Below, one piece after another: positions 19,542-56,067 of a DNA stretch of 56,067 bases. Under the pieces are notes generated by a model that did no database searches, had not been told where the DNA came from, and saw nothing but the letters and a program-made list of their open reading frames with translations. The stretch comes from an uncultured Oscillospiraceae bacterium (GTDB lineage: Bacteria; Bacillota; Clostridia; Oscillospirales; Oscillospiraceae): contig CAZEPQ010000001.1 of assembly GCA_964514175.1 (NCBI GenBank), forward strand, positions 1 through 56,067, read 5' to 3'. Position 1 is the stretch's first letter. Every line of letters begins with the position of its first letter. A program made the position numbers and the translations under genes.

Positions 19542-19553
19542 CCGTTTCAACGA

Positions 19554-35846: not shown

Positions 35847-35858
35847 GGGGGGCGCGAC

Positions 35859-36839: not shown

Positions 36840-37804
36840 TGGCACCCCAGCTTGAGGTTAAGAATCTGAAAAAGTACTTTAAGACTCCCTCCGGCATGCT
36901 CCATGCCGTTGATGACGTTTCCTTCACCATCGAGGCAGGCAAGACTCTGGGTGTCGTTGGCGAGTCCGGCTGCGGCAAGTCTACCCTTGGCCGTACCGTT
37001 CTGGGACTCCACGATGCCACCGAGGGAGAGGTTCTCTTTGAGGGCAAGCCCATTTCCGGCGGCAGCAGAAAGGAACGGAAGGAGCTGCGGCGGAATATGC
37101 AGCTCATCTTCCAAGACCCCTTCTCCTCCCTGAATCCCCGCTACTGTGTTTCTGAGCTGATCGCAGATCCTCTGAAAATCTATAAGGAATATAAGAACAA
37201 GGCAGATTTGCAGGATAAGGTTTACGAGCTGATGGATACCGTTGGCCTTGCCAGAAGACTGGCCTATGCCTATCCCCACGAACTGGACGGCGGACGCCGC
37301 CAGCGGATCGGCATTGCCCGGGCACTGGCCCTGAATCCCAAGTTCATCGTCTGTGACGAGCCGGTATCCGCTCTGGATGTGTCCATTCAGGCACAGATCC
37401 TGAATCTTCTCCAGGATCTCCAGGAGGAGAAAAAGCTCACCTATATCTTCATCACCCATGACCTGTCTGTCGTAAAGCATATTTCTGACGACATTCTGGT
37501 TATGTATCTCGGCACCGTAGTGGAAAAGTGTCCCTCGGATGACCTGTTCGAGGAGCCTCTGCACCCCTACACCAAGGGACTGTTGTCTGCAATTCCCATC
37601 CCTAACATTGATGTGAAACGGGAAAGGATTCTGCTCCAGGGTGAGCTCTCCTCGCCTGTGGATCCCAAGCCCGGATGCCGGTTTGCAGGCCGTTGCCCCT
37701 ACGCAACGGACAAGTGCAGAGCCGAATCCCCTGCGCTGGAGGAAGTAAAGCCCAATCACTTTGTTTCCTGCCATCACGTTCGGGAAATCAACGATAAAAT
37801 TTAA
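36839..37804 (+). CDS. ABC ATP-binding protein (DppF/OppF-like)
   Basis: Walker A GESGCGKST, signature LDGGRRQR, Walker B FIVCDEPVSALD. TAATG start/stop overlap. Confidence 0.9.
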   Translation: MAPQLEVKNLKKYFKTPSGMLHAVDDVSFTIEAGKTLGVVGESGCGKSTLGRTVLGLHDATEGEVLFEGKPISGGSRKERKELRRNMQLIFQDPFSSLNPRYCVSELIADPLKIYKEYKNKADLQDKVYELMDTVGLARRLAYAYPHELDGGRRQRIGIARALALNPKFIVCDEPVSALDVSIQAQILNLLQDLQEEKKLTYIFITHDLSVVKHISDDILVMYLGTVVEKCPSDDLFEEPLHPYTKGLLSAIPIPNIDVKRERILLQGELSSPVDPKPGCRFAGRCPYATDKCRAESPALEEVKPNHFVSCHHVREINDKI

Positions 37805-38787: not shown

Positions 38788-40245
38788 ATGTCAAAAGTAT
38801 ATGTACCCTATGGATTGGCGGCCACCTGCGGCCCCGGCTGTCGTGCGGAAATCATTCCGGGAAAGGGCGGCTTCGGCGGTCCCCCCGATGTGTATCCTCT
38901 GCCGGACAACTATTGCTCTCCTCTTGCGGAACTGCCGGACTGGTTTACCTATGAGCCTCAGGCAGAAATCAGCCGGGAAGGGATTCAGCTGGGAGAAAAA
39001 GCTCAGATCCAGGGAACTCTCTCTGCGGAGCTTGCACAGGACATCACCATGAAAATTGACGAGCCCGGCGTCAACGGATTCGTTGTTAATGATGACTGTA
39101 AATATACCATCCGTAACGCAGTCATTGAACTCAACGGTGATGGCGTAGACGATTTTGCCGGCTACAGTGCCGGTGTCAAAGCGGCAAACTGCTCCACTGT
39201 GGTGCTGGAAAACACAAAGATTACCACGTCCGGTATCATCCGTCCCTGCACCTCTGCCACAGAGTACTCCACCATGATCATTCGCAACTGTGAACTCAAT
39301 ACCCTTGGCGGCCATTTGGACAAAACGCAGCCTGTCCGTCCCGGGGCAGGAAAAGCCATGAAGGAGCCACCTCCCGGCCTGGGGATCGGCGGAAATTGCC
39401 GTACGCATCTGTCCGTAGGCGATTCACATACCTATTTTTACGATTCCAAAATCTACGCAGAGGGTTGGGCCGGTCTTTCCACCGATGCGTGCTACGGGGA
39501 TCTCTATCTGGAAGCAAACCGCTGCGACGTGGAGATTCGTGGACTCGGCTATGCATCCTACTGCGACAACGGGGGCAATGTGGTACTCAACGATTCCAGA
39601 CTGAAAGCCACCGTGGGCGTGATCGTGGCAGGACAGTGCCGCGAATATCTCAATCGGTGTACCCTTGAAGCGGACCATTACGGCGCTCTGATCCACAGCG
39701 TCCACGGCAACACCCATCAGCTTGCAGAGCTTTCTGTAAACGGCGGTCGAATCCATACGGGCAGAGAATGCATGCTCATTAAGAGTCATAACGCATATCT
39801 GGACATTCGGGGTGCCGAGCTAACCTCTGACATTGGGACCCTGATTCATACCGTGGTAAATGACGACGCACATACAACGGAGCTTCCGGAATATGAACCG
39901 GTATACGGTGTAAAGGTTGCCCTTTCCGATATGACGGTGGAGGGAGATATTATCCACGAGGATGTTCAAAGAACGATGTCCCTTACCATGAAGCATGTAA
40001 ACATGCGGGGTCGGATTGAAAATGCTATCCTCGTCATGGATCCGGCAACCACTTGGGTTGCTACCGAAGATTCCCACGTGACAGTTACCGCCACAGGCCC
40101 TGTGGGTAATATCGATGCATTGGAGGGAGTTACAGTCTACGTCAAGGGCGATGTATATGCTCCTGGCACGGTTTTGAATCTCCCCTCTGGCGGCAAGCTG
40201 ATTTCTGTAGATATTCCACCCCAGCATCTGGAGTTATCCTTCTAA
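38788..40245 (+). CDS. parallel beta-helix repeat protein, paralog P2 (485 aa, no signal peptide), function unknown
   Basis: LNGDGVDDFAGYSAGVKA, PPGLGIGGNCRTHL, WAGLSTDA and GYASYCD align with P1 (13432-15477). AGGAGG RBS. Confidence 0.55.
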   Translation: MSKVYVPYGLAATCGPGCRAEIIPGKGGFGGPPDVYPLPDNYCSPLAELPDWFTYEPQAEISREGIQLGEKAQIQGTLSAELAQDITMKIDEPGVNGFVVNDDCKYTIRNAVIELNGDGVDDFAGYSAGVKAANCSTVVLENTKITTSGIIRPCTSATEYSTMIIRNCELNTLGGHLDKTQPVRPGAGKAMKEPPPGLGIGGNCRTHLSVGDSHTYFYDSKIYAEGWAGLSTDACYGDLYLEANRCDVEIRGLGYASYCDNGGNVVLNDSRLKATVGVIVAGQCREYLNRCTLEADHYGALIHSVHGNTHQLAELSVNGGRIHTGRECMLIKSHNAYLDIRGAELTSDIGTLIHTVVNDDAHTTELPEYEPVYGVKVALSDMTVEGDIIHEDVQRTMSLTMKHVNMRGRIENAILVMDPATTWVATEDSHVTVTATGPVGNIDALEGVTVYVKGDVYAPGTVLNLPSGGKLISVDIPPQHLELSF

Positions 40246-42097: not shown

Positions 42098-42841
42098 ATG
42101 ATGAAATCTTTAACAAGCGAGCAATTGGTCGGTATCTTTGAGGATCAGCGAGATTTAAAAAATCTCATGGGTAAGATCTGCTATACCATCCTCCTGAAGC
42201 AGGAGAAGGATATGGTTCAGCAGTTCTGGTCCCAAAGAGCGGACGTTTGCCTGGGCACCAATGCAGGTTATTATGACGGCGCTGATGCGGTCAAGGGATA
42301 TTACGAGGCTGTCCATCAGCACACAGTGGAGGCAACTGAATTTCTGAAAAAGGCTTTCCCGGATCGGATGGGAAAGCTTACCGAAGAGGAACAGTTCGGC
42401 GCCGGCTCCATGGACGTCAAGCCCATGGATACCGCCGTCATTGAGATCGCCGGAGACGGGGAAACCGCCAAGGGAATCTGGTATTCTCGTGGCACCTACA
42501 ACGATTTGACAGAGCAGGGACCTCTGGCCTTCTGGAAGCTGGGCGTCTATGCCTGTGACTTTGTCCGGGAAGATGGTCAGTGGAAGGTATGGCATATGCT
42601 GAATCTGACGGACGTACTGGTTCCCGGCGGAAGAAGCTGGGCAGACGCCGAAATCGAGCCCTATCCCGATCTTCCGGAATGGGCCGGGGCCAAGTCCTTT
42701 GTACCTCCGGCACCCAATCGTCCCCAGGTATTGCGGGAGGTTTATTATCCAGGCCGCCCCATGGCACCCCTGCCGGAGCCCCCGGTGCCCTATGAGACAT
42801 TTGCCGACACATTCTCCTACGGCTGCGAAAAGGAGGCTTGA
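42098..42841 (+). CDS. NTF2-like protein, subfamily A, copy 2
   Basis: FWSQRADVCLGTNAGYYDGADAVKGYY, GPLAFW, EDGQWKVWHML, and tail PVPYETFADTFSYG. Confidence 0.7.
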   Translation: MMKSLTSEQLVGIFEDQRDLKNLMGKICYTILLKQEKDMVQQFWSQRADVCLGTNAGYYDGADAVKGYYEAVHQHTVEATEFLKKAFPDRMGKLTEEEQFGAGSMDVKPMDTAVIEIAGDGETAKGIWYSRGTYNDLTEQGPLAFWKLGVYACDFVREDGQWKVWHMLNLTDVLVPGGRSWADAEIEPYPDLPEWAGAKSFVPPAPNRPQVLREVYYPGRPMAPLPEPPVPYETFADTFSYGCEKEA

Positions 42842-42843
42842 AC

Positions 42844-43617
42844 ATGAATTACTACGAGGACAGACAGTATACCGATGATGAATTGATCATTCGGGTAATG
42901 GATAAAGAAGAAATTAAAAAACTCATGGCCCGCCGTGCCTTCTACTATGCAGGTGACCAGCGCCGCCGGGAGCTGGATGAACTGTGGGTCAGCACCCCGG
43001 AATACAAAACATCCGCATCCTATGGCCGCAACTGGGGTTATTATGTGGGCATGGATTCCATCGCAAATTATTATGTGATCGAACACACCAAAAAGCAGTA
43101 TGCGCTCCTTGAGGCCATTCATGCGGTTAAGCCTGAGGTGGAAGTGAACAATCTGAACCTGGGCTACGGCGCCTGTTCCTTCCATACTGTGACCACCCCC
43201 ATGATCTACATTGCCGGAGACGGAAAAACTGCCCGTGGCCTGTGGTATACCCCCGGACACGAAACCCTGATGCAGCCGGATGGCACCGCCAAGGCCTACT
43301 GGACCATGGACAATATGGCTGCTGACTTTGTTAAGGAAAACGGTCAGTGGAAGATCTGGCATCTGGTCGTGTGCAGCGACTTCTTTGTGGAAGCCGGAAC
43401 AGACTTTAAGACCGGCACCCTGGAACCGCTGACCGGACCCGATCCCTTCCGGGATGAGTTCGGCACCCCTGACATCCCCATGACGGTCCACAATCCCCGC
43501 TATAATCTCTCTGACAACTATCCCCCCATGCCTCTGCCTTATGACACCTACACTGTAGCCGGAAGCATGGCGCCGGAGGGACATCCCAACTATAAGAAGG
43601 AGGTTCTGAAACGATGA
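42844..43617 (+). CDS. NTF2-like protein, subfamily B, copy 2
   Basis: AGGAGG (42831-42836) lies 7 nt upstream of the ATG at 42844. EEIKKLMARRAFYYAGDQ, LWVS...SASYGRNWGYYVG, ENGQWKIWHLV. Confidence 0.7.
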   Translation: MNYYEDRQYTDDELIIRVMDKEEIKKLMARRAFYYAGDQRRRELDELWVSTPEYKTSASYGRNWGYYVGMDSIANYYVIEHTKKQYALLEAIHAVKPEVEVNNLNLGYGACSFHTVTTPMIYIAGDGKTARGLWYTPGHETLMQPDGTAKAYWTMDNMAADFVKENGQWKIWHLVVCSDFFVEAGTDFKTGTLEPLTGPDPFRDEFGTPDIPMTVHNPRYNLSDNYPPMPLPYDTYTVAGSMAPEGHPNYKKEVLKR

Positions 43618-44522
43618 AGACCCATCTGAGCTTACATCAGCGCATCCATAACGCCGACGGCAGCCAGCAGATTGAGAATCTCAAAGCCATCCATGCCTAT
43701 ACCCACGCCAGAAACTGGCCTGTGGAAGAATGGGATAACATTTGGGACCTGTCTGACGATTGCTCCTGGGCCCACGGCTTTGGCCGGTGGAGAGGCGGCT
43801 ATAAGGTCTATCTGAACTCCGTGACCGAGTGGGACATTCCTACCTTCACAAACTACATGAAGCTCTATAAGCTCTATCCCGATGTTATGGGTATGGATCC
43901 CAGACCTCTAAACTTCTCTCCCGTGCATAATCTCTCCAGCGAGATCATCGAGGTGGCGGACGACGGAAAGTCTGCCCGTGGCGCTTTCCTGACCCCCGGC
44001 AACATCTATGAATACTTGAAGCCTCAGCAGCGCCGCCGTGCCATCTTCATGTGGGAGCGCTATGGCGCCGACTTCGTCTGTGACGAGAACGGACACTGGA
44101 AGTACCTCCACGAGCATGTCTGCCCGGATTTCCAGGGCAACTATGACGACGCAAACTGGGGCCTAGAGGCATATCATCTTGCCACAAATCCCAATATGCG
44201 CAACTCCGCATCGCCTCCCCCGGATGCGGATGCAGCCGGTGCCGGCCCCAACAGTGTCAACTCCACCCCCAAGGATAAGGGCGAAGGCGGACCCGGTGGT
44301 CCCGGTGGCCCTGGCGGTCCTGGCGGAGCAGCACCGGAAGGCCCTCCCCCGGATACCGGTGGAGCTGGCCCGAGAGATATGATGCTGGATGATCCCGGCC
44401 CCCTGCATCGGGAGTATGAGTTCCTGATGCCCATTCAGAACACCTGTCCCTGGCCCGAGCCCTACGAGACCCTGGACAATAACAACACCTATACACCTTT
44501 TATCGGAAAAGACCGCCTGTAA
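43614..44522 (+). CDS. NTF2-like protein, subfamily C, copy 2, with Gly/Pro-rich segment
   Basis: ATGA overlap with the B2 stop. IEVADDGKS, WERYGADFVCDENGHWKYLHEHVCPD, GEGGPGGPGGPGGPGGAAPEGPPPD, and tail PWPEPYETLDNN. Confidence 0.7.
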   Translation: MKTHLSLHQRIHNADGSQQIENLKAIHAYTHARNWPVEEWDNIWDLSDDCSWAHGFGRWRGGYKVYLNSVTEWDIPTFTNYMKLYKLYPDVMGMDPRPLNFSPVHNLSSEIIEVADDGKSARGAFLTPGNIYEYLKPQQRRRAIFMWERYGADFVCDENGHWKYLHEHVCPDFQGNYDDANWGLEAYHLATNPNMRNSASPPPDADAAGAGPNSVNSTPKDKGEGGPGGPGGPGGPGGAAPEGPPPDTGGAGPRDMMLDDPGPLHREYEFLMPIQNTCPWPEPYETLDNNNTYTPFIGKDRL

Positions 44523-44543: not shown

Positions 44544-45434
44544 ATGACTGTTGAAGAACGCCTGGAAATTCTCGAAAAACAAGTTCAGCGCAACAAGGAC
44601 TACAATGAGATCCAGAATCTAATGGCCCGGTATGAATTCTTCCATTCCTGCGGACAGGATTCCTACATTGCCCGGAACCTCTTTGCCTACTGGCATCCCG
44701 ATGCAAATTCTGAATATGGGCCTCTGGGCGTGTTCGATGCCCAGGGATCTGTGGATTTCTTTGATAACCAGTCCTGCATGATGACCGACGGCACTTTCTA
44801 CCGTCCCGCCAAGGGTAACGCTATCATCCATCAGGTCACCACCCCCTGCATTGAAATTGCAGAGGACGGCATGTCCGCCAAGGGCACCTGGCTTTCCATC
44901 GGCGGCGAGCTTATGGGCGGCGATATGTACATGGGCCCCATGATCGCCCCCGGAGAGGAACTCCCCGCAGAGATGCCCAAGCCCCCCATGCCTCCTGCCG
45001 GCGGTGAAAAGAAGGAAGGCCCTCCGCCCCAGCAGGGCAGCGGCTTCCGCATCGACTTTGCCTACTATGCCGAGGATTTCATCAAGGATGAAAACGGCAA
45101 GTGGTGGATCCTCCATCACCATGTCTGTGACCGCTGGACCGCAGAGCTGGATACGGATTTCCTCCGGAATGTGAAATCCGGTCAGAAGAAGGCGCGGGAA
45201 TGGATGACCCAGGAGAAGATCGACGCCGCAAAGGGTCAGCCCGCAAAGCCCGGCGCACAGCCTTCTGCACCCACCACCTACCATTACGAGCTGGATAAGG
45301 ATCATGGCATTCCTTACTTCCCCGTGCCCCCAGAACCCTACACCACCCTGTCCGAGGCAAAGAGCTTCCTGCCTCAGGATTGGACCGATACCTATGACTT
45401 TATGAAAAAATTCCTAGATGAGGGGAATTTGTAA
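44544..45434 (+). CDS. NTF2-like protein, fourth type (D), BaiE-like N-terminus with internal Pro-rich insertion
   Basis: MTVEERLEILEKQVQRNKDYNEIQNLMARYEFF, IEIAEDGMSAKGTW, DENGKWWILHHHVCD, insert PMIAPGEELPAEMPKPPMPPAGGEKKEGPPPQQG, and tail PPEPYTTLSEA. AAAGGAG RBS. Confidence 0.7.
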   Translation: MTVEERLEILEKQVQRNKDYNEIQNLMARYEFFHSCGQDSYIARNLFAYWHPDANSEYGPLGVFDAQGSVDFFDNQSCMMTDGTFYRPAKGNAIIHQVTTPCIEIAEDGMSAKGTWLSIGGELMGGDMYMGPMIAPGEELPAEMPKPPMPPAGGEKKEGPPPQQGSGFRIDFAYYAEDFIKDENGKWWILHHHVCDRWTAELDTDFLRNVKSGQKKAREWMTQEKIDAAKGQPAKPGAQPSAPTTYHYELDKDHGIPYFPVPPEPYTTLSEAKSFLPQDWTDTYDFMKKFLDEGNL

Positions 45435-45473: not shown

Positions 45474-47177
45474 ATGAAGAAATTACTCGCACTGCTGCTT
45501 GCACTTTGCATGGTATTCTCTCTGGTTGCCTGCGGCGGCGCTGCCAGCACCGCTGAAGAAGCCACCGCTTCTGCCGAAGAGACCCAGGCTTCCGAGCCCG
45601 TTGCAGAAGAAGCTCCGGCCGTGGAGGAGGCTGCTCCTGTCGAAGAAGCACCCTCTGCCGCAGAGGAAGCCCCTGTTGAAGAGGCCGGCCCTCAGAAGGT
45701 TGCGGTTGAGCTTCCCATCGTGGATGAGCCCACAACCTATACCATCTGGTACAGCGAACCCTTCGCAGAATATGTTGAGAATCCCGCAGAGGATGTTGGC
45801 GTGTTCGTTTCTCTGGCAGAGCGCACGAATATCAGCTTTGAGTTCAACCTGGCAAGCGTTGATACTGCCAGTGAGAAGTTCCAGCTCATGTTTGCATCCG
45901 ATGACCTGCCCGATGTGATCACCGATGCCATGCAGTATTATTCCGGCAGTATCGACGATGCTGTTTACGAGGATGCATTCCTGTATGATTACTCTGGCGA
46001 TCTCGACTCCATGCCCAACTACAGCTACACCCTGAATCAGTATGTGGAAGCCAAGAAGACCCTGACCAGCGAATCCGGCGCCATGGTATCCTTCCCTGAA
46101 ATGTATGAAGACATCGGCGATATTGATGGATTTATGATTCGCAAGGACTTCCTGGAAGGCTCCGGCCTGGATATTCCCACCACCTACGAAGAGTTCCATG
46201 AGCTCCTGACCGTAGTTTACAATCAGACCGGCGCAGGCCTGGGCCTGTCCTCCTCCGGCGGCGACAGCAAGCTGGGCGCAGGCTTCGGCATCAACACCGG
46301 CCTGGATGACGAGGATATTTCCGGCTGGTACCTGGACGGCGATACCGTTATGCTGGGCATCCTCCAGCCCGAGTTCCTGGATTACCTTGAGATGGTAAGC
46401 GAATGGTATGCTGAAGGCATTATTTATCAGGACTTTGTAAGCCTGGATCAGGCTGATCTGTCCGGTATTTTCAGCGGCCAGGTTTCCATTAACATTAAGG
46501 TTCCTGAAATCGTGGAAGTTTCCAACAAGGTTATCGGCGTTGAAATGGTAGCTATGGCTATGCCTCGCCAGAACGCTGGTGACGAGCTGCACATCTGCGG
46601 CGGCGCTACCTCTTGCCTGATGGATGCAAACTGCTGGAGCATTAACGTAAATGTTGACGACCCCACGCCTCTGCTTCAGCTTATCGACTACATGTACTCT
46701 GACGAGGGCTACTACCTGATGAACTACGGTGAGGAAGGCTTCTCTTATAACATGGTGGATGGCGAACCTGTTTTCACCGACATTGTTATCGCAAATCCCG
46801 ACGGTTACGATTATGCGCTGGCTGCTTATCTGTACGCCACCTCCAACCGTACTCGCCTGCCCTTCCTCAGCGACTATGACCGTTGCTTCGCACAGTACAC
46901 CGATGCTCAGTGGGATGCCATCAACATCTACGCAGAGGACTGCGACCATGCTGCTGACTTCCCCAACGGTGCTATTATGACCACCGAGCAGAAGGAAGCC
47001 TATAATACTGTTGCTTCCGATATTTCCACATATATCGCAGAACACGTTCTGAAGTTCATCTATGGCCAGACCGACCTGTCCGAGTGGGACGCATTTGTCC
47101 AGACCCTTTACGACATGGGCATCGAAACTGCCATTGCTGCAAAACAGGCTGCATACGACGATTATCTGGCTGCCTAA
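45474..47177 (+). CDS. large extracellular solute-binding lipoprotein (ABC family-1), orphan
   Basis: MKKLLALLLALCMVFSLVACGG lipobox, an acidic linker EEATASAEETQASEPVAEEAPAVEEAAPVEEAPSAAEEAPVEE, and 567 aa. AAAGGAG RBS. Confidence 0.85.
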   Translation: MKKLLALLLALCMVFSLVACGGAASTAEEATASAEETQASEPVAEEAPAVEEAAPVEEAPSAAEEAPVEEAGPQKVAVELPIVDEPTTYTIWYSEPFAEYVENPAEDVGVFVSLAERTNISFEFNLASVDTASEKFQLMFASDDLPDVITDAMQYYSGSIDDAVYEDAFLYDYSGDLDSMPNYSYTLNQYVEAKKTLTSESGAMVSFPEMYEDIGDIDGFMIRKDFLEGSGLDIPTTYEEFHELLTVVYNQTGAGLGLSSSGGDSKLGAGFGINTGLDDEDISGWYLDGDTVMLGILQPEFLDYLEMVSEWYAEGIIYQDFVSLDQADLSGIFSGQVSINIKVPEIVEVSNKVIGVEMVAMAMPRQNAGDELHICGGATSCLMDANCWSINVNVDDPTPLLQLIDYMYSDEGYYLMNYGEEGFSYNMVDGEPVFTDIVIANPDGYDYALAAYLYATSNRTRLPFLSDYDRCFAQYTDAQWDAINIYAEDCDHAADFPNGAIMTTEQKEAYNTVASDISTYIAEHVLKFIYGQTDLSEWDAFVQTLYDMGIETAIAAKQAAYDDYLAA

Positions 47178-47192
47178 ACCATAGGAATTACA

Positions 47193-47246
47193 AGGTGCTG
47201 TCTCAAAATGATTCTCAGGAATCAAAAGAGGCAGCACCTCTTTTTT
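47193..47246 (+). terminator. rho-independent terminator of the plus-strand NTF2/SBP operon
   Basis: 12-bp stem aggtgctgtctc / gaggcagcacct followed by CTTTTTT. Confidence 0.65.
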
Positions 47247-47405
47247 ACAATCAGACGCAACAAAGAATTTGCATCAGTGGTAGATTCTTTTTGCATTTGT
47301 GGTACAATAATACCGTGAAGAAGTATACCGCCTGGCATACTTTTATATTTTGTGTCTCTGAGAACGGCCCCGTCGTTCCCAAAGAAAAGGAAGGAGAACG
47401 AGGTA

Positions 47406-47831
47406 ATGTATGAAATCGAAAAGGTAATTCACGCCGGGATCAGCGTTTACAACATGCAGCAGAGCCTTGCGTGGTACGCCGATAATCTGGGGTTTCAGTT
47501 GCTCAGGGACGACGGCTTTATCCCCCCGCTGGAAGCACATATATGTTTTTTGGAGAAAGACGGTTTTCAGATTGAACTGTTTGAGTACAAGACCCCCAAA
47601 CCGCTGCCCACGGATCGCCTCATGCCAAATTCAGACCTGCAGACAGTCGGTACAAAGCATATCGCCTTTTCCGTAAAAGGCATGGATGAATTAAAAAGCA
47701 AGCTGGTACAGAACGGTACCGAAATTGCACTGGAAACAGAGATGAACGGCACGCGTGTGCTATTCATCCGGGACTGTAACGGCGTGCTGATCGAGCTTCT
47801 GGAACCTCCCCAGGAAGAAGTCACCCTGTAA
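47406..47831 (+). CDS. VOC / glyoxalase-bleomycin-resistance-dioxygenase superfamily protein
   Basis: 141 aa. IHAGISVYNMQQSLAWYADNLGF...HICFL...GFQIELFE...GTKHIAFSV...NGVLIELLE shows the paired beta-alpha-beta-beta-beta pattern. GGAGAA RBS before the ATG at 47406. Confidence 0.8.
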   Translation: MYEIEKVIHAGISVYNMQQSLAWYADNLGFQLLRDDGFIPPLEAHICFLEKDGFQIELFEYKTPKPLPTDRLMPNSDLQTVGTKHIAFSVKGMDELKSKLVQNGTEIALETEMNGTRVLFIRDCNGVLIELLEPPQEEVTL

Positions 47832-48097
47832 AAACAATTTGCGTTCAGAGGCATCTGGGGACGGTTGTGCTGGCCGAAAAGGACAGAGCAGAGCCTGAAT
47901 ATGACCACCGCCCCTTTCGAGCTGGGTGTGTAGAGTCTGTGCAAACAATATACCGCTGGTCGGAGCAGTCCATGACTTCACCTGTCTGCAAGTGGGAAAG
48001 AACTATTTTTTCTACCCACTCAGAAAACTATAATGGGGTTATGAAAGGAAATCGTTATGCGGCGCAGATCCGGAAATTGTTGTGTATCTGCACTGAT

Positions 48098-48152
48098 AAC
48101 AAAAGACCTCCCAAAAGTAGACCTTGGTATTTCCTTGGTTTACTTTGGGAGG
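48098..48152 (-). terminator. terminator after the CoA-transferase gene
   Basis: Stem cctcccaaaagta / tactttgggagg (one bulge) followed on the minus strand by CTTTTG. Confidence 0.5.
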
Positions 48153-48209
48153 ATCTTATTACAGATTATCGTCCGGTCTTTATGTGCAATGCGGCACCGC
48201 CTTCTTGCA

Positions 48210-49517
48210 TCAAATATATCCCAGCTTTTTCGCTTCAAACCGCAATTCATCCCGGAACGCCGGGTGGGCAATCTGGATCAACTGCATAGCTCGTTCCTTC
48301 ACCGTGCGGCCACGCATATATGCCACACCGTACTCGGTGATGATGATATCCGCAATATTCCGGGAAATGGTCACCACAGAACCGGGTGTCAGGATGGGCT
48401 TGATCTTGGAGATCGTCCCGCTCTTAGCCGTGGATGCAATGGCAATGATTCCCCGGCCTCCTTTGGAGTGCTGCGCACCGTATGCAAAGTCAAAAGCACC
48501 ACCGGTACCGGAATACTGCTTCGGGCCCATTGTCTCTGAGCAGATCTGTCCAGTCAGGTCAATTTCCATAGCAGTATTGATGGAAACCATGTTATCGATG
48601 CGGGAAATTACGAAGGGATCGTTGGTATAGCTGGCCTGCCGAAACCAGGTTTGGGGATTGGAAGACATGATGCGGTAAAGCTTTTCATCCCCAAGAATGA
48701 AGTTGCCCACATGCTTTCCAGTGTCTATATTCTTTCTGGCACCGGTAATAACACCCGCCTCGATCAGATCGCCCATGACCGGCGTGAACAGCTCTGTGTG
48801 CAGGCCCAGATCGTGCTTATCAAAGAAGGAGTTACCCACGGCATCCGGCATGCCTCCCAGCCCCAACTGAATGCAATCTCCATCGTGAACAAACTCTGCG
48901 GCGTAAGCGCCAATTTGCAGATCTATCGCACTGGGCGTGCTTCGCACGTTGTAGATGGTGGCAGGATAATCTGCCTCTACGATCAGATCTACATTCTCCA
49001 GCGGAATCTCCAGCGCACCGGGGAACCGGGGCAGATTGGGACTAACCTCTAGTATCACCGTTTCTGCGTGAAGATAGGCGTCTTCCTCCCACATGCCACT
49101 GCCGGAGATTGAGAAATCTCCGTTTTCGTCCATAGGTGTAGCCGCGGCGATAAATTTGTGAACGATAGGCTTGTAGTCCGTTCTCCGCCGCATCATGTCA
49201 TGGAGGTTAGAGGGAAGATGAGATGCAATCCCCATCTCATGGCACCTGCGCAGTGCTCCGTCGTAGAGGTGGCAGACCAGATTCAGGCGCCCCTTCAACT
49301 CCGGCATCTCCATAAAGGGATAAACGTATCCGCTGCCCCGTTTTCCTTTAACAAGCTCAATGTCCTGCAGCTTCGGTGCAACCCGGTGAAAATTCTCGTA
49401 GAACAACTGCGGCTCACAGAGCTCGCCGCCTCCGCAGATTACATCCCCGTCCTGTAACAGGGCAAGCATGTCTTCCACAGTACCAGTTTTATTTATATAT
49501 TCTTTCTGCAAATCCAC
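48210..49517 (-). CDS. acetyl-CoA hydrolase/transferase family protein (4-hydroxybutyrate / butyryl-CoA:acetate CoA-transferase type)
   Basis: 435 aa. GDCIQLGLGGMPDAV, NTAMEIDLTGQICSE (catalytic Glu region) and SGTGGAFDFAYGA motifs. GTG start with GGAGG 11 nt upstream. Confidence 0.85.
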   Translation of the reverse strand: MDLQKEYINKTGTVEDMLALLQDGDVICGGGELCEPQLFYENFHRVAPKLQDIELVKGKRGSGYVYPFMEMPELKGRLNLVCHLYDGALRRCHEMGIASHLPSNLHDMMRRRTDYKPIVHKFIAAATPMDENGDFSISGSGMWEEDAYLHAETVILEVSPNLPRFPGALEIPLENVDLIVEADYPATIYNVRSTPSAIDLQIGAYAAEFVHDGDCIQLGLGGMPDAVGNSFFDKHDLGLHTELFTPVMGDLIEAGVITGARKNIDTGKHVGNFILGDEKLYRIMSSNPQTWFRQASYTNDPFVISRIDNMVSINTAMEIDLTGQICSETMGPKQYSGTGGAFDFAYGAQHSKGGRGIIAIASTAKSGTISKIKPILTPGSVVTISRNIADIIITEYGVAYMRGRTVKERAMQLIQIAHPAFRDELRFEAKKLGYI

Positions 49518-49740
49518 AGTGTAAAATACCTCCTCATTTTAGCTCCGCTAATATCATATCACAAACCGCCAAGCATTCGCAAGGAACGAAATATGACCTT
49601 TAAACTTTGCGGCCGCCTTTCTGTTTTGCGTCTTTTTCTCTTCTAATCTCCATTGTACCCTTTTGCGTCCTCTTTGGGGGCGCTTATTTTTTCGCACATT
49701 TCCTTTTTGCTCAATACAAAATCGTGACACTTTTGCATAT

Positions 49741-49772
49741 GAAAAATTCCGGCAGCGAAACCGCTGCCGGAA
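49741..49772 (-). terminator. rho-independent terminator after NTF2-C copy 3
   Basis: 11-bp stem ttccggcagcg / cgctgccggaa followed on the minus strand by TTTTT. Lies 14 nt after the stop at 49786. Confidence 0.7.
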
Positions 49773-49785
49773 CGGATGTAAGCTA

Positions 49786-50790
49786 TCAGGGTTTCTTCTT
49801 GGGCTGAGCACCCTTGTTCTCACCCAAACCTACGCAGTAGTGAACCTTCACATCATCCAGCGTAACGAAGGGTTCCGGCCAAGGGGTGGAATCCTGTGCA
49901 GGCTGAACGGGAGACCAGGTCTGGTGGGATGCGGGCAATCTGCCCTGCTTGGGGCCCTCTGCCATCTTGGAATAGGCCTGCCCCTTCTTGGGGGCACTGC
50001 TGGGACCACCAGGAGCACCGCCAGGACCACCAGGAGCACCGCCGGGACCGCCGGGAACACCGCCAGGACCACCTGCTGCACCAGGCGCACCACCAGGACC
50101 GCCGGGAGCACCGCCAGGACCACCGGGAGCACCGCCAGGACCACCTGCTGCACCAGGCGCACCACCAGGACCGCCAGGGCCACCACCATTGCCGCCGGGC
50201 TGGGGACGTCCGCCGCCCTTAAACTTATTGTAGCAGTCAATGGCAAAGTTGGTAACATCCTGTGCACCGCCAGCATCATTGAGCACGCACTCGTGGAGGA
50301 TCTTCCAGAAACCATCCTCACGGACGTAGTCCTCACCGTAACGTTCCAGCATCCAGACAGCCATCTGCTTACCGCTGGTGGAGATACGGCGGTAGAGCAT
50401 ACCGGTGGAGTAGAACAGGGCACGGGCGGTCAAGAGATCCTCGCCAACCTCAACGATGGGAGTACCAATGGCGTGGAGAGAATACTCGGAAAGAGGCAGG
50501 GGATCCATATTCACGGTCTCGGGATACATCTCGTTGAAAACCTCAAACATCCGGCGGCCACCGCCCTCAAGACCATTGGCCCAGTTGGTCATAACTTCGT
50601 CACGGCCATAGTTGCCGGTCATATTGTAGCCCCAGTACAGGTCATCCCGGTACTTGGCCCAGAAAGTTTCGATCTCCTCGGTGGTGTGGCCGGAGGCATG
50701 AAGGATCGCATGCCATGCGTGAACCTTTTCACAGTTCTGACCAGCTTCAATTATGGCCAGCTTTGTCTCTAAATCAATGTTTTTTCTCAT
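49786..50790 (-). CDS. NTF2-like protein, subfamily C, copy 3, with long (GGPGGAP)n repeat
   Basis: AAGGAGGG RBS. VEVGEDLLT, LERYGEDYVREDGFWKILHECV, a ~65 aa Gly/Pro tract, and tail PWPEPFVTLDD. Confidence 0.7.
   Translation of the reverse strand: MRKNIDLETKLAIIEAGQNCEKVHAWHAILHASGHTTEEIETFWAKYRDDLYWGYNMTGNYGRDEVMTNWANGLEGGGRRMFEVFNEMYPETVNMDPLPLSEYSLHAIGTPIVEVGEDLLTARALFYSTGMLYRRISTSGKQMAVWMLERYGEDYVREDGFWKILHECVLNDAGGAQDVTNFAIDCYNKFKGGGRPQPGGNGGGPGGPGGAPGAAGGPGGAPGGPGGAPGGPGGAPGAAGGPGGVPGGPGGAPGGPGGAPGGPSSAPKKGQAYSKMAEGPKQGRLPASHQTWSPVQPAQDSTPWPEPFVTLDDVKVHYCVGLGENKGAQPKKKP
50010..50215 (-). repeat. imperfect tandem coding repeat (72-nt super-period built from 15/21-nt GGPGG / APGGPGG units)
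   Basis: acctgctgcaccaggcgcaccaccaggaccgcc occurs at 50071 and again at 50143. All six reading frames stay open across the tract. Confidence 0.8.
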
Positions 50791-50802
50791 GATGATCCCT
50801 CC

Positions 50803-51570
50803 TTAGCCTTTGTAGCCCGGGTTGCCCTCCAGGCCATTGCTGATGGTATCCGCGAAGGTCGCATGCTCCATGGTAAGCTCCGGATAGGGGAAGTAGTTGT
50901 AGAAAGAGGTATATGCCTCGAACTTCTCCGTGGGCTCGCCAAATTCCTTCTCCAGATACTTGTCGCAGGGAGTAGTCTCCTCGGTCTTCAGAGTGGCATA
51001 GGGGAAGCCGGGACGCAGGGCAAAGTCTGTACCTGCGAAATAGTGCCAGATCTTCCACTGACCATCCTCGTAAACCAGGTCAGCGCCGCAGCGCTGGTTG
51101 TCCCAGTAGCAGTCGGTCTCGGTGTCGTTTGCGGGGTTGATCTCATAACCAATGGAATACCATGTGACCTGAGCGGTCTTGTTATCGTCAGAGATGACGA
51201 TCATATAGGTGGTAAAGGGATGGCAGACATCGGTGCCTACGCCGCCGAAGGGATTGCTGTCCACATAGTACTTACGGATATTCTCAATACCCACATAGTA
51301 GCCCCAGTTACGGCCATAGGAAGCAGTGTCAGCCTGCTCCTTGGTCCACAGGGTATCGATAATCTCAGCGCGACGGTTGGCATGCTCCAGATAAGCCTTT
51401 TTGGAGAGGACCTTCTTTACTTCCTCCACCTGGTAGGCGCGCCAAGCACGAACTTCGGGAGAGAAGTCCTCGGGCTTGGAATTACTGGGCTTCATATGAA
51501 TCATGGACTGGCACTCATATCTGTCATAAGTTCCGCCAAAGGCTTCATGGGTTGTATACTTGAATTCCAT
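50803..51570 (-). CDS. NTF2-like protein, subfamily B, copy 3
   Basis: LWTKEQADTASYGRNWGYYVGIENIRKYYV and EDGQWKIWHYF. GAGGAGG RBS. Confidence 0.7.
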   Translation of the reverse strand: MEFKYTTHEAFGGTYDRYECQSMIHMKPSNSKPEDFSPEVRAWRAYQVEEVKKVLSKKAYLEHANRRAEIIDTLWTKEQADTASYGRNWGYYVGIENIRKYYVDSNPFGGVGTDVCHPFTTYMIVISDDNKTAQVTWYSIGYEINPANDTETDCYWDNQRCGADLVYEDGQWKIWHYFAGTDFALRPGFPYATLKTEETTPCDKYLEKEFGEPTEKFEAYTSFYNYFPYPELTMEHATFADTISNGLEGNPGYKG

Positions 51571-51584
51571 TATTTAGCCTCCTC

Positions 51585-52310
51585 TCAAATACCGTAGCTG
51601 AAGGTCTCAGCCAGGGTGGTGTAAGGAACAGGCATCTGCGGTGGCTCCTGATAAGGCCGATCCACGCTGTATGCCTTATAAACTTCCTTCTGGACATTGG
51701 GAACAGGCTCAGGAATGTCGAAGGCAGCAAACTCTTTCAGCTCGGGATACTTGCTTTCTTCGGTCCAGGGCTCTGCACAGGGATGATCAATATCCACTGC
51801 GTACAGCAGGTTCATGATCTTCCACTCGCCGTCTTCAATAACCAGATCCGCAGCCATGTAACCGATCTTCCAAATACTCAGAGGGCCTCTGGAAGTGACG
51901 CGGGTATCTGCTGCCTGGAACTGCCAGAGCGCCTTGGCACTCTGCATATCCTCGGCTACTTCAATGATGGGAGAGTGCATATCGGTACCTTTGACATAGC
52001 CGGCACCAAACATCTCTTCCTCGGTCTTTCCCTTCACCTTGTCGTGGTCTGCCCACTTTTCCATAACAAGTTTGGTAAGCTTTTTGGCATTCTGAAGTTT
52101 CTGATCGTAGTAGCCCTTTACAGCCTCTGCGCCCTTAAAATAACCATTGTTAAATCCCAGGCACACATCCTCGCTCTTGCTCCAAAACTGGGGAACCAGA
52201 TCATAGTCTGCAAGCATGTCGCAGTGTGCGACTTTACCCACAATATTCTGGACCTCGCGAATGATCAGACAACGGTCTGCCATTTCCTGCGCCGTATACT
52301 GTTTGCTCAA
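51585..52310 (-). CDS. NTF2-like protein, subfamily A, copy 3
   Basis: TTG start at 52310, 7 nt after AAAGGAGGAA. FWSKSEDVCLGFNNGYFKGAEAVKGYY, GPLSIW, EDGEWKIMNLL, and tail PVPYTTLAETFSYGI. The longer ORF-track version (to 52577) has no RBS and would overlap the HxlR gene start. Confidence 0.7.
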   Translation of the reverse strand: MSKQYTAQEMADRCLIIREVQNIVGKVAHCDMLADYDLVPQFWSKSEDVCLGFNNGYFKGAEAVKGYYDQKLQNAKKLTKLVMEKWADHDKVKGKTEEEMFGAGYVKGTDMHSPIIEVAEDMQSAKALWQFQAADTRVTSRGPLSIWKIGYMAADLVIEDGEWKIMNLLYAVDIDHPCAEPWTEESKYPELKEFAAFDIPEPVPNVQKEVYKAYSVDRPYQEPPQMPVPYTTLAETFSYGI

Positions 52311-52551
52311 CGTAATTCCTCCTTTAATAATGTTTTCCGAGACCAAGTGAATCTCGGTCTTTCTATTTCTAAATTTACCTAGAACAAAGGAAAAGGTCAA
52401 GAACGCACATTTTGATGACAATGAGTAGTTTCCCCCATTTTGGGGTGTTTTCCGAACTTTTTGACACATTTGAAAAGAATGTGCGAGAATTGAAAAGCCG
52501 CAAAAAAGGGATATAAAGTATAATTTAATCAGGCAGAAAGGAGGCGTTGAC

Positions 52552-53163
52552 ATGGTCTTTGCACAGAATTCCGGCACACATCCCCATATGGACTCGCTAA
52601 ATGGGAAATGGAAATTGGAGCTTCTGTATCACCTTTCAAGGGGAACTGTCCGCTGGAGCACCCTGACCCACAGCATTCCAAAAGCCGCACCGAACGTACT
52701 GACCCGACAGCTTCGCAAGCTGGAGACAGACGGGCTGGTGCTGCGGATCGTTACCTCTGCCCAACCGCCTCAGGTCATTGAGTATACGCTGTCAGGCCAG
52801 GGACGCCGGCTCGTTCCTATGCTGGAAGCTCTGGCTCGCTGGGACAAAACCTATCACAAAAACACGGAAACCGCTCCGGACTTTTCTGACTGTCAACGTG
52901 TCCTGTCCAGTCGTTGGATGCTACCCATCCTAACGCTACTTTCTGTCCCCCTGCGCTTCGGGAGCATTCAGGCCCATTTTGAAAACCTCTCGCGCGGCGT
53001 ATTAGCCGCCCAACTGGGCGAGCTACGGGATATGGGCTTTGTTTATCAGAAGCGCTATGACATATTCCCACCTCGGGTTGAATACGTTCTGTCAGAAAAA
53101 GGACGTGATTTCCTGGATATCCTACTGCCGAATGCCACAAAAAAGCCTGCCGAAAATGCATAA
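52552..53163 (+). CDS. HxlR-type winged-helix regulator with two tandem HxlR domains
   Basis: First half GKWKLELLYHLSRGTVRWSTL...LTRQLRKLETDGLVLR...VIEYTLSGQG. Second half SRWMLPILTLLSVPLRFGSI...LAAQLGELRDMGFVYQ...RVEYVLSEKG. AAGGAGG RBS. Confidence 0.75.
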   Translation: MVFAQNSGTHPHMDSLNGKWKLELLYHLSRGTVRWSTLTHSIPKAAPNVLTRQLRKLETDGLVLRIVTSAQPPQVIEYTLSGQGRRLVPMLEALARWDKTYHKNTETAPDFSDCQRVLSSRWMLPILTLLSVPLRFGSIQAHFENLSRGVLAAQLGELRDMGFVYQKRYDIFPPRVEYVLSEKGRDFLDILLPNATKKPAENA

Positions 53164-53210
53164 ACGGGTGTGCTGCAAAAAGCCTTGCAGCACACCCGTT
53201 GGTCGTATTA

Positions 53211-54494
53211 TCATTTTTTCTGCCGTAGCTTACCGGGAGCCACTCCCTCCACATTGGTAAACGCACGGTACATGGTAGCCAAGCTACAGTAGCCCACTGC
53301 CTCTGCAATGTCCTGAACGGAATCATTTGTGGTCAGCAGCAATTCTTTGGCCTTCTTAACTCTGGTTCTATGCAGAACATCGTTGATGCTCTCACCAAAG
53401 TATTGCCGGAAGGACTCTGCCGCATCTCTGGGTTTGAGTTTAAATTCTCTTGCCACCGCTGCAATCCCCATGTTCATGTCCGTGGCGTTATTTTCTACAT
53501 ACTTCTTTATATCCCGCATAAGCCGATCGTGTCGCTGCTCCGAACGGAGTTTGGCATGCTCCACCAATCGCTGCGCAATGGTCTCGCTGACCGCAAGGTA
53601 GTCCTTCAAATTGTGCCGGGACACCAGTTCGCGGCTAAAGTCGATCTGGGAAATATATCTCCAATCCGCCAGGTCCTGCTCCGCCAGCCGGTATTGCAGC
53701 AGCGAAATAAACCGGTTGGTAGTGAGATCCAGCGTTGTGGGATAGGGCATGCCAATGCTGTTTTCGGCAATCTTCTGGAGTTGCTCCTGTATGTACTGCT
53801 GTGCAGTCTGAACATCTCCCGCCTGAACACTGCCGCAGATCCGCTCTGTTGACTGGAAGAATGTCTGCTCAAACTGAGAACGCTGTCGAACATCTGAAAG
53901 CTTGTCCAGGGCATTGTCTGGGATCACATAGGCCTGTGGTATCTTATCCACGTAGAAGTTCCGGCTCTTTTCCACATCCTGCAGCATATTGTAGGCGGTC
54001 TCTATTCCCTCAACCATCTCCCATCGGCCACTTACGGTAACGTAGGCCCGGAAGCCCAGCGCTTTCTGGGCATATTGCACTGCCTCACAACACGCCTCCG
54101 TCACCTTCTCATCCTGATCCCCGGTATAGAGAATGCCGAACATGTAGCCCATCAATAGCACCAAAATGCCACCGGGCGTATCCTTCAGCTCCACGACCAA
54201 ATGCTCCCGCAGGGCACTGTACATATTCAGCTGACAGTTGTGTCGATAGCGACCGGACAAGGCTCGGACTCCGGGCTCCGCCAAGGTATACTGCACCACG
54301 CGAAACGCCCTGTCAGGAAGATCAAACCCCAAATATCTCAGCCGATCCTGAATGTCCCTACCCATGGCGCCTGCTCTTAAAAGCAAAGCGCTGATGACAC
54401 CGTAAAGTTCATCCGGGATTGACTGCTGTGCATATGCGCCGACACCGATTATGGACGGATGATCGATATCCTGACACCAGTGTTGAAATTCCAT
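53211..54494 (-). CDS. AraC-family regulator with long receiver-less N-terminal domain (AraC-4)
   Basis: 427 aa. C-terminal HTH pair ...MGIAAVAREFKLKPRDAAESFRQ...VQDIAEAVGYCSLATMYRAFTNV. AGGAGGGGG RBS. Confidence 0.85.
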   Translation of the reverse strand: MEFQHWCQDIDHPSIIGVGAYAQQSIPDELYGVISALLLRAGAMGRDIQDRLRYLGFDLPDRAFRVVQYTLAEPGVRALSGRYRHNCQLNMYSALREHLVVELKDTPGGILVLLMGYMFGILYTGDQDEKVTEACCEAVQYAQKALGFRAYVTVSGRWEMVEGIETAYNMLQDVEKSRNFYVDKIPQAYVIPDNALDKLSDVRQRSQFEQTFFQSTERICGSVQAGDVQTAQQYIQEQLQKIAENSIGMPYPTTLDLTTNRFISLLQYRLAEQDLADWRYISQIDFSRELVSRHNLKDYLAVSETIAQRLVEHAKLRSEQRHDRLMRDIKKYVENNATDMNMGIAAVAREFKLKPRDAAESFRQYFGESINDVLHRTRVKKAKELLLTTNDSVQDIAEAVGYCSLATMYRAFTNVEGVAPGKLRQKK

Positions 54495-54752
54495 AATCCC
54501 CCTCCTGTCCTTATGCGGATAAGCTAGTGCAATTATACCACATTTTCATGAAAACAGATACCATTAATATGTATTTTTTGCAAACAATATGGGCTCCTCA
54601 AATCTCGCTCTGTCTTCTCATTTCCTGCGAAAAGGGGGCATATGCCCATTGTCACCGGTTTGTACCTTCTTGACGGAAGCCCATGATCTGGGGAATAATG
54701 GGGGTGTAATCGGAAACCAAGCGGACTTTCCACACGACAGGAGGAATTTATT

Positions 54753-55652
54753 ATGGCAGAAATCAAACGCTTTAACTTTAATCAGGTAGCAGCAGATCTC
54801 GGCTATGTGGCTGAGCCTACTCCCGGCGGACCCGGCGGTAAGCCCGCAGGCGGTCCTGGTGGTCCTGGCGGCGGTCCTGGCGGTCCTGGCGGTCCTGGCG
54901 GCGGCCCTGGTGGTCCCGGTGGTGCCCCTGGCGGTGGTCCTGGCGGTCCCGGTGGTGCCCCTGGCGGTCCCGGCGGCGGCCCTGGTGGTCCCGGTGGTGC
55001 CCCTGGCGGTGGTCCTGGCGGTGGTCCTGGCGGTCCCGGCGGCAAGCCTGCTGGCGGCGCTCCCAACTTCAGCGACCCCGAGCTTATCCGCAAGAATGCA
55101 CTCCGCTTTAAGGCTATGTGGCCCGATGAGCGGTCCATGAAGCTCATCAACGAGTATTTTGTTGATTACGAGAAGTCCGGCGAACCCATCGACTTCGAAG
55201 GCCACTCCATCTGCTGGGCTATGATCGCACTTCAGCAGAAACTTCTGAAGAATACCGTCTACATGTACATGCCGCCCTTCGGCAAGAGCCTGGATCTTGT
55301 CCCCATGAAGCGTGTAGCTGAGCCTCAGGATAACCCCATGATGAAGTTTGATGTTACAGAGCAGGGCGACGACGTCCGCATTGTTGTAACACTGTTGGGT
55401 GGCGGCAATCCCGATCCCTTCCAGATGCCTCTGAGCGACGTTGAGATCAAGGAAATCGGTTCCGGCAAGAACATCTGGCTGGAACTGGTGGGCGGACACT
55501 TCCTGTTCATGTTTGCTTTCCCCAAGACCTTTGGTGCAGACTGCAACACCATGTACTATAAAGAAGGCGGAGAGACTTGGTACTGCGTAGCTTCCAATAC
55601 CCCGGATGTCAACGTGGGCGACAAGCCTGAAAAGAGTCCCTTTGAGGCATAA
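54753..55652 (+). CDS. hypothetical protein: ~80 aa Gly/Pro repeat N-terminal region plus ~200 aa unknown C-terminal domain
   Basis: AGGAGG RBS. (GGPGG / APGG)n from residue ~24 to ~103, then a non-repetitive domain NFSDPELIRKNALRFKAMWPDERS...WYCVASNTPDVNVG. I recognised no family motif. Confidence 0.6.
   Translation: MAEIKRFNFNQVAADLGYVAEPTPGGPGGKPAGGPGGPGGGPGGPGGPGGGPGGPGGAPGGGPGGPGGAPGGPGGGPGGPGGAPGGGPGGGPGGPGGKPAGGAPNFSDPELIRKNALRFKAMWPDERSMKLINEYFVDYEKSGEPIDFEGHSICWAMIALQQKLLKNTVYMYMPPFGKSLDLVPMKRVAEPQDNPMMKFDVTEQGDDVRIVVTLLGGGNPDPFQMPLSDVEIKEIGSGKNIWLELVGGHFLFMFAFPKTFGADCNTMYYKEGGETWYCVASNTPDVNVGDKPEKSPFEA
54826..55060 (+). repeat. imperfect tandem coding repeat (75-nt super-period)
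   Basis: ggccctggtggtcccggtggtgcccctggcggtggtcctggcggt occurs at 54903 and again at 54978. Open in all frames on both strands. Confidence 0.8.
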
Positions 55653-56067
55653 TTAGCATAGACTCTCATACCCTATCCTCTTTCCTTTAACCATTGGGCG
55701 GACACGCATAGACGTGTCCGCCCAAATGCTATGACATACAAAAAGGGAGAACCATTTACATTTTTGTTCAGTCGCAGATCCACATCCTCAACTTGCTTGG
55801 CGTATAGGTCGTCCTGAATTGCGAGAAATCTGTTTCCTGCCGATACTGTCATCTGCCCTCTGGGCCTCCGAGCCAGCGCTACGGCGGTAGATCAGCTCCG
55901 CGGGCAAACTCCCACCTCATCCCCATCGGCGGCTGTACGAAGCCTCAGCAGGTCACACAGGCTGTTCGCAGTGGCTACGATGCCGCAATTGTATTAGATT
56001 GATACCACAAAACGGGGCTGTTGCAAAATGCAAATTTTTGCAGCAGCCCTTCCTTATCTCCAACATA

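Follow-up and report, generated by a model that had tools for sequence, protein, structure and literature searches.

Does a coenzyme A (CoA)-transferase gene that lies beside a cassette of genes for nuclear transport factor 2 (NTF2)-like proteins belong to the same pathway, and what do the NTF2-like proteins do? This question is raised by contig CAZEPQ010000001.1 (assembly GCA_964514175.1), a stretch of 56,067 nucleotides from an uncultured Oscillospiraceae bacterium, hereafter called the window. The cassette consists of the genes A3, B3 and C3 and is one of three A-B-C cassettes in the window; the coordinates of all features are collected in Table 1. An original prediction, made from the sequence, had set the cassette and the transferase side by side as components recalling bile-acid 7-dehydroxylation. 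From comparison of gene neighbourhoods, the transferase appears to be a free-standing chance neighbour outside the cassette. The closest characterised relative of the A, B and C proteins is the CoA-free lignin-dimer lyase LdpA and not the dehydratase BaiE of the bile-acid (bai) pathway.

The CoA-transferase and the limits of the conserved module

Orthologous A3-type cassettes were found at 19 loci (82-90% identity), 17 of which have sequence downstream of C. In none of these 17 is C followed by a transferase gene; 14 have a binding-protein gene directly after C, and in the remaining 3 that place is taken by other genes or by nothing that could be classified. No orthologous locus of cassette 3 or of cassette 2 holds the transferase of the window. 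Orthologues of that transferase (74-86% identity) occur in four differing gene settings: with LysR and enoyl-CoA hydratase genes; with genes for LysR, PrpD and a glycyl-radical enzyme; with aldo-keto reductase and DegV genes; and with genes for Fic and S-layer proteins. DNA similarity to these loci is confined to the coding sequence. On the side of the cassette, the nucleotide similarity between the window and its relatives spans from about 49749-49790, at the C3 stop codon and terminator, to 55654, at the end of the gene X4, and no further. Between the conserved cassettes 2 and 3 lies a junction peculiar to this genome, 47178-49749, in which the transferase is accompanied by a glyoxalase-family gene. 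The original prediction had proposed a functional link between transferase and cassette and had named comparative synteny as a way to check it. On that comparison, whose outcome is the one that the prediction had itself set as grounds for rejection, the link is not supported, since orthologous cassettes lack the transferase, the transferase orthologues stand among unrelated and variable genes, and the shared similarity ends at the C3 stop and terminator.

The transferase itself had been recognised correctly as a separate gene of the 4-hydroxybutyrate type beyond the terminator and as belonging to another family than BaiF/BaiK. Sigma-70-like sites of its own lie before it, and it is of the AcetylCoA_hyd_C type and not of family III. 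It shares this domain and full-length homology with the 4-hydroxybutyrate CoA-transferases of the AbfT/But family, which are its best solved relatives (E=9e-78). Its score against TIGR03948, the butyryl-CoA:acetate CoA-transferase equivalog, is 258 bits and does not reach the cutoff of 674.8, and it is therefore regarded as a paralogue without assigned acyl specificity. An exact-sequence look-up of the window CoA-transferase returned no record. The terminator predicted after C3 was also found, within a few bases of the predicted position; its stem of 12 bp includes 8 G-C pairs, the loop has 4 bases, TTTTCATATG forms the tail, and RNAfold gives it -23 kcal/mol. A G+C-rich hairpin right past the C stop occurs in 9 of 10 orthologous loci checked, the exception being L010. 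The spacer between C3 and the transferase contains a further hairpin that resembles a terminator and has a T-run (49665-49683, plus strand); it has no plus-strand gene upstream and may be a remnant of the rearrangement behind this junction.

On its other side, cassette 3 is joined to a conserved set of genes. In close relatives, that is, contigs with a 90%-identical B3 and genome loci with A3 at 82-86% identity, the order is X4 < AraC > HxlR < HxlR < A > B > C > binding protein (> binding protein > second A-B-C); in the more distant L016 and L017 (57-58% identity) X4 immediately precedes A-B-C and shares its strand (X4>A>B>C). From the shared extent and order, the natural unit therefore comprises X4, AraC, HxlR and A-B-C, with a binding protein to follow in most relatives. 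The statement that no binding protein is linked to cassette 3 was correct for this window, yet its absence is peculiar to this genome, most cassettes orthologous to it having one. The tandem HxlR regulator, divergent from A3, and the AraC regulator upstream were likewise confirmed by Pfam. The former is one 203-amino-acid (aa) open reading frame (ORF) here, whereas close relatives have a pair of ORFs of 108 and 100 aa that overlap (L002:8397-9015). The Cys before the conserved Trp (DCQRVLSSRW) is kept only in the second HxlR domain, and the RrpA and RrpB models match the protein with scores under their cutoffs.

The conserved fourth partner, X4, lies beyond the AraC gene and had been overlooked. 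X4 is present with every A3-type cassette having its upstream region recovered. Its N-terminal peptide is conserved (MAEIKRFNFNQVAADLGYVAEP) and is followed by a GGP/PGG linker of ~80 aa and a globular domain that is 78-82% identical among orthologues. Searched singly or as a 9-sequence profile, this domain gave no Pfam, NCBIfam or PDB match, and its AlphaFold2 (AF2) model from a 2-sequence alignment was unusable (predicted local distance difference test, pLDDT, 45). Two independent C-X4 fusions are found (P0210 and L019:8332-9852). Because X4 is conserved with A3-type cassettes and fused to C elsewhere, it is regarded as a putative accessory subunit.

The A, B and C proteins as relatives of LdpA

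The anatomy of cassette 3 agrees with what had been read from the sequence. A3 starts with a TTG codon (52310-52308, minus strand) behind a strong ribosome-binding site, and this start with its AAGGAGGAAT site recurs in 7 orthologous loci, with TTG in 6 and GTG in 1. B3 and C3 follow downstream, as the ORF list and the sequence read confirm, each with a GGAGG site of its own and after gaps of 14 (A3-B3) and 12 (B3-C3) bases. The NTF2-like nature of all three proteins holds as well, each passing the Pfam SnoaL_4 threshold (B3, E=3.6e-10); none of the NCBIfam models covers A3, B3 or C3, and an exact-sequence look-up found B3 only on a 1.4-kb read assembly. C3 consists of an NTF2 core, a Pro/Gly repeat linker and the conserved tail PWPEPF.TLDD. 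The linker differs in length between orthologues: the called C3 orthologues have 279-289 aa versus 334 aa here, and the stop-to-stop C ORFs of orthologues span 282-344 aa. The DNA repeats behind the linkers of C3 and X4 (54849-55043 in the latter) have periods of 12, 21 and 72-75. Together with the orthologue lengths, this tandem-repeat DNA suggests that slippage drives the length variation of both Pro/Gly linkers. A Rfam scan of 47000-56067 detected neither a riboswitch nor a leader.

The three cassettes of the window are 29-44% identical within a type, and A and B are 24-29% identical to each other, so that the copies are old paralogues and not recent duplicates; the C-terminal tail motif P.PY.T(F/L) is common to all window cassette proteins. 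A profile of the ten window proteins reached 1700 cluster representatives at E<=1e-3 among 1.84 billion, 329 of them at E<=1e-30. In the sources consulted no member is named more closely than as 'nuclear transport factor 2 family protein' or 'hypothetical'. A scan of one genome per species gave 78 loci, nearly all from metagenome-assembled genomes (MAGs) of uncultured Oscillospiraceae/Clostridiales from human gut, rumen and deer, often several per MAG; these loci were surveyed by ORF/BLAST synteny. Some of the cassette contigs among L010-L087 carry the bin names Bacteroidaceae, Barnesiella, Flexilinea or Bacteroides sp.; since the genes on them share 77-86% identity with genes of Oscillospiraceae MAGs, they are probably mis-binned.

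Across the survey the gene order is nearly invariant. Of 103 A-type genes, 86 are followed by B and C on the same strand, in 12 the contig ends first, and the other 5 are tandem paralogues in divergent orientation, which makes A>B>C the order in 86 of 91 testable cases. Tight gaps or 4-base overlaps separate the genes. Natural A-B fusions number at least seven (P0044, P0045, P0164-P0166, P0168, P0172), each with A before B, and in both of the two whose contigs were read an overlapping C-type gene comes next. Fixed order, tight coupling and such Rosetta-stone fusions together argue for physical association of A, B and C. The neighbours of the cassettes are binding proteins or Opp transporters in 49 of the 78 loci, LysR, AraC, HxlR or PucR regulators in 37, and reductases of the old yellow enzyme (OYE) or FAD_binding_2 kind in 32, with an OYE gene within 10 kb in 27.

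The characterised protein nearest to this family is LdpA, a lyase that needs no cofactor and splits erythro-DGPD, a lignin beta-1 dimer, into lignostilbene and formaldehyde via a quinone methide. The C-terminal arm of LdpA stabilises its homotrimer; His97 and Glu143 serve as acid/base residues, and the oxyanion hole is formed by Tyr35 and Tyr147 (PMC9942872). The homologue PcfL has beta-5 dimers as its substrates (PMC12997858). An AF2 model of A3 (32 sequences; pLDDT 94.9, predicted template modelling score 0.89) was compared with the PDB by Foldseek, and the LdpA entries 8abt, 8abu, 8abv and 8abw rank first (E=5e-10 to 1e-8, template modelling score 0.57-0.63), with 227-257 columns aligned, so that the C-terminal arm is included. 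After LdpA come BaiE (E about 5e-7), LinA (root-mean-square deviation 2.8 A) and a putative scytalone dehydratase. Single-sequence PDB searches of A3 and B3 gave nothing useful; by family profiles LdpA was reached, as the only credible solved structure, from A (E=1.6e-10), B (E=4e-10) and C (E=5.6e-6). The architecture of LdpA/PcfL, a SnoaL_4 cone with a long C-terminal arm in ~240 aa, is present here.

Catalytic residues were mapped by aligning the NaLdpA fragment 12-180 to hidden Markov models of the three types, built from non-redundant sets of 103 A, 92 B and 84 C proteins. In the NaLdpA numbering, His97 corresponds to His in 84/84 C and 78/92 B proteins, and the position is not aligned in A, which has no conserved His there. 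Glu143 and Tyr147 are matched by Glu and Tyr in 84/84 C proteins and fall in variable columns of A and B. Tyr74 is matched by Tyr in 70/92 B proteins and is not aligned in A or C, while Tyr35 and Asp40, both on helix 1 and the latter the dyad partner of His97, fall in variable columns of B. The set of His97, Glu143 and Tyr147 is found in the C type only. Further invariant polar residues of C are His27, His31, Arg150, His166, Glu167 and a tail His. From this alignment we infer that C is the one catalytic subunit and that A and B are degenerate.

The likeness to LdpA and PcfL, which are sphingomonad C-gamma-formaldehyde lyases that deformylate phenolic beta-1 or beta-5 dimers to stilbenes, has clear limits. 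LdpA is encoded by one gene in aerobic lignin degraders, whereas three diverged paralogues are found here in strict anaerobes, only 15-18% identical to LdpA in the fold alignment and two of them without its catalytic set. The arm of C is tethered by a Pro/Gly repeat linker, unlike that of LdpA, and X4 is an extra partner. Three paralogues in fixed order with A-B fusions do not fit a homotrimer of one polypeptide and point to a heteromer. LinA and scytalone dehydratase are trimeric NTF2-fold proteins, performing cofactor-less eliminations by a His/Asp pair, but each is a short homotrimer encoded by one gene, and at the level of sequence neither showed similarity to A, B or C.

A putative heteromeric lyase and the rival explanations

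The reading that we favour, with a probability of roughly 0.55, is that A, B and C form a heterotrimeric LdpA-like lyase or dehydratase with a catalytic C subunit and X4 as accessory subunit, which would act on an imported plant phenolic, the transferase being unrelated. A3, B3 and C3 would be co-transcribed and translationally coupled, and their products would assemble 1:1:1, each C-terminal arm clasping its neighbour as in the LdpA homotrimer. Only C would carry the LdpA-type acid/base set; A and B would shape the pocket or the assembly, and X4 would be tethered to it. Since LdpA is cofactor-less and acts on plant phenolics, the same may be proposed by analogy for A-B-C. The enzyme would then catalyse an elimination (a dehydration or lyase step) that may pass through a quinone-methide-like intermediate, and in many sister loci neighbouring OYE-type Fe-S flavoenzymes would reduce the product. 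Expression would be under the conserved AraC and the divergent HxlR-family regulator. To the HxlR family belong HxlR itself, which responds to formaldehyde, and YodB, CatR and QorR, which sense quinones and electrophiles; HxlR control would be coherent with an LdpA-type reaction. The CoA-transferase would be independently transcribed, having landed at the junction of cassettes 2 and 3 in this genome, and would stay outside the cassette chemistry.

Several observations weigh against this heterotrimeric reading. The case for the heterotrimer is drawn from the order of the genes, from fusions and from analogy. Tyr35 and Asp40, near the N-terminus of LdpA, cannot be aligned to the A or C profiles, and the many extra invariant His/Glu/Asp of C could mean a different chemistry or a metal site. 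A3-type cassettes have no adjoining OYE gene. As to the transferase, the U-run of the C3 terminator is short, only TTTT(C), so that some read-through may occur. Moreover, transferase paralogues (41-51% identity) lie within 10 kb of some cassette in 4/78 loci, and a loose association of the transferase family with the cassettes, seen in 4 cases, is unproven. These four belong to at least three subfamilies, vary in position and orientation, and include no orthologue of the transferase in the window. They occur in 1.0 Mb of cassette-centred DNA, and the transferase family has 4969 matches at E<=1e-20; given this abundance, the proximity demonstrates no link.

The cassette might instead encode three separate homotrimeric enzymes for consecutive steps (e.g., isomerase, dehydratase and lyase), as an operon and not a complex. 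The homotrimer is the norm for LdpA, BaiE and LinA, each type has its own invariant residues, and B keeps the equivalent of His97. The A-B and C-X4 fusions and the strict 1:1:1 order fit a complex better, however, and A has no conserved acid/base residue at the mapped pocket positions, so that we hold this alternative to be unlikely. Still smaller is the chance that the NTF2 heteromer has no catalytic function at all and serves as binder or sequestrant of a small molecule, or as scaffold or chaperone for the reductases, in the manner of the NXF/NXT heterodimers. NTF2 folds are often mere binders, the heteromeric NTF2 pairs 3nv0 and 6ihj are among the Foldseek matches, and A and B are without catalytic residues; but the conservation of His, Glu and Tyr at the LdpA catalytic positions of every C protein and the catabolic surroundings of the genes make such a role very improbable.

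The explanation closest to the original prediction is a CoA-dependent reductive dehydroxylation of the bile-acid type, in which the transferase would activate an alicyclic or aromatic substrate bearing a carboxyl group, the NTF2 proteins would dehydrate its CoA ester in the way of BaiE, and OYE and FAD proteins from other parts of the island would reduce the product. The cassette does share with BaiE and the bai operon the SnoaL_4 family, an NTF2 architecture that is trimeric in BaiE and putatively so here, the occurrence in gut Firmicutes and BaiCD-like Fe-S flavoenzymes in the island. The structural match to BaiE is significant, the model that OYE2 fits best is BaiCD (417 bits, though below the cutoff of 825), an FAD_binding_2 gene is present in the window, and the four cassette-near transferases could be counted in its favour. 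Yet BaiE has ~170 aa, forms a homotrimer without the long arm and is out of reach of the A, B and C profiles, LdpA being the nearer homologue. Among the window ORFs scanned, none carries an AMP-binding, CoA_transf_3, SDR or MFS domain, and no acyl-CoA ligase, family III CoA-transferase, hydroxysteroid dehydrogenase or bile-acid transporter was detected; the lack of ligase, transporter and dehydrogenase genes had already been stated in the original prediction. The adjoining transferase is of another family and non-syntenic, being missing from the orthologous cassettes with its own orthologues elsewhere, and it is set apart from C3 by a terminator and separate promoter matches, while the cassette-near transferases of other loci fall into several subfamilies. 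Synteny has largely refuted the bai-like explanation, and its remaining probability is slight indeed. What keeps some support from the original prediction is the general idea that an NTF2 enzyme is paired with an OYE ene-reductase, for which the OYE genes within 10 kb of cassettes in part of the loci and the second place of BaiE among structural neighbours speak; the part assigned to the transferase falls away.

To return to the LdpA-like heteromer, a broader and clearly more doubtful proposal would treat the A-B-C triplets as a class of NTF2 enzymes that has gone unrecognised, heterotrimers in which a single subunit is catalytic, the other two are pseudo-enzymes and X4 is at times tethered to them, multiplied into many substrate-specific cassettes in uncultured Oscillospiraceae of gut and rumen. 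Together with Fe-S flavin ene-reductases, they might carry out anaerobic, cofactor-less cleavage or dehydroxylation of lignan and lignin phenolics, as counterparts of LdpA/PcfL. The elements are of known kinds, namely the NTF2/SnoaL_4 fold, the LdpA-like active site and the 4-hydroxybutyrate-type transferase, and the transferase side is ordinary. Literature searches returned nothing relevant on heteromeric NTF2/SnoaL enzymes in gut or rumen anaerobes, and in the literature and libraries searched no description was found of the three-paralogue arrangement, the Pro/Gly-tethered arm or the orphan X4. If the model is true, the NTF2 fold, known from single-gene homotrimers (LdpA, BaiE, LinA, scytalone dehydratase), would also occur as an obligate three-gene heteromer, and a single catalytic subunit within it would be unusual for NTF2 enzymology. 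To our knowledge, very few enzymes have been described for the anaerobic transformation of lignan or lignin dimers. The presence of several cassettes per genome (three in the window), with binding protein and regulator of their own, suggests a large unexplored repertoire for plant secondary metabolites in anaerobes. For annotation, a tempting yet unsupported link to CoA-dependent, bile-acid-like chemistry is removed.

Features of the window

Table 1. Positions of cassette 3, its neighbours and other features in the window
Feature	Position	Strand	Description and evidence
A-B-C cassettes	23743-21323, 42098-44522, 52310-49786		
A3	51585..52310	-	241-aa SnoaL_4/NTF2 protein with long C-terminal arm; putative non-catalytic subunit, without LdpA catalytic residues
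A3 ribosome-binding site	52316..52325	-	AAAGGAGGAA; GGAGG 7 bases before TTG; sequence read and orthologue conservation
B3	50803..51570	-	255-aa SnoaL_4 paralogue; His117 is the sole kept LdpA equivalent (His97)
C3	49786..50790	-	334-aa SnoaL_4 paralogue; putative catalytic subunit (His106, Glu149, Tyr151)
Tandem repeats in C3	50003..50199	-	periods 12, 21, 72; encode PGG linker; tandem repeat scan
Intrinsic-terminator hairpin	49746..49773	-	13 bases past C3 stop; terminator scan and fold energy
CoA-transferase	48210..49517	-	4-hydroxybutyrate/butyryl-CoA:acetate-type paralogue; GTG start; AcetylCoA_hyd_C E=6e-61
Promoter matches upstream of CoA-transferase	49536..49582	-	two, overlapping, sigma-70-like; consensus scan only
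Tandem HxlR (MarR/DUF24) regulator	52552..53163	+	divergent from A3; two HxlR domains, E=1.5e-36; Pfam, NCBIfam and synteny
Perfect hairpin, 17-bp stem	53163..53200		between convergent HxlR and AraC genes; terminator scan
AraC-family regulator	53211..54494	-	Pfam match; conserved with A3-type cassettes
X4	54753..55652	+	N-terminal peptide, PGG repeat linker and ~200-aa orphan domain; putative accessory subunit
D2	44544-45434	+	fourth SnoaL_4 paralogue of cassette 2; 296 aa; Pro-rich insertion inside NTF2 core
OYE-type (BaiCD/FadH-like) Fe-S flavoenzymes	17502-19550, 25469-27424		Pfam scans
LipO-like lipoprotein binding proteins	1966-3678, 10086-11861, 19554-21314, 45474-47177		four paralogues, 30-34% identity
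Opp-type ABC transporter	32242-37804		sole complete ABC transporter in window

By Pfam scans of its other large ORFs, the window is a catabolic island, containing two GH3 glycosidases, an FAD_binding_2 protein, flavodoxin-like and beta-helix proteins and several AraC/LysR/PucR regulators. No permease or ATPase gene adjoins any of the four LipO-like binding-protein genes. The hairpin between the HxlR and AraC genes is probably a bidirectional terminator; the sole Rfam match to it, a miRNA on both strands, was judged spurious.

Genes resembling D2 adjoin OYE genes in L030, L057, L061 and L080. A glyoxalase/VOC-family gene (47406-47831, plus strand) lies between cassette 2 and the transferase, and a second VOC gene (L096:1181-1705) lies directly upstream of the A-B fusion P0044; at E<=1e-8 none was detected in the 78 scanned loci. 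Two further paralogues of the window, at 13432-15477 (minus strand) and 38788-40245 (plus strand), have at most a weak Beta_helix match and 25% mutual identity; relatives of them are found near cassettes in 6 of the 78 loci, and beside a transferase orthologue in L090.

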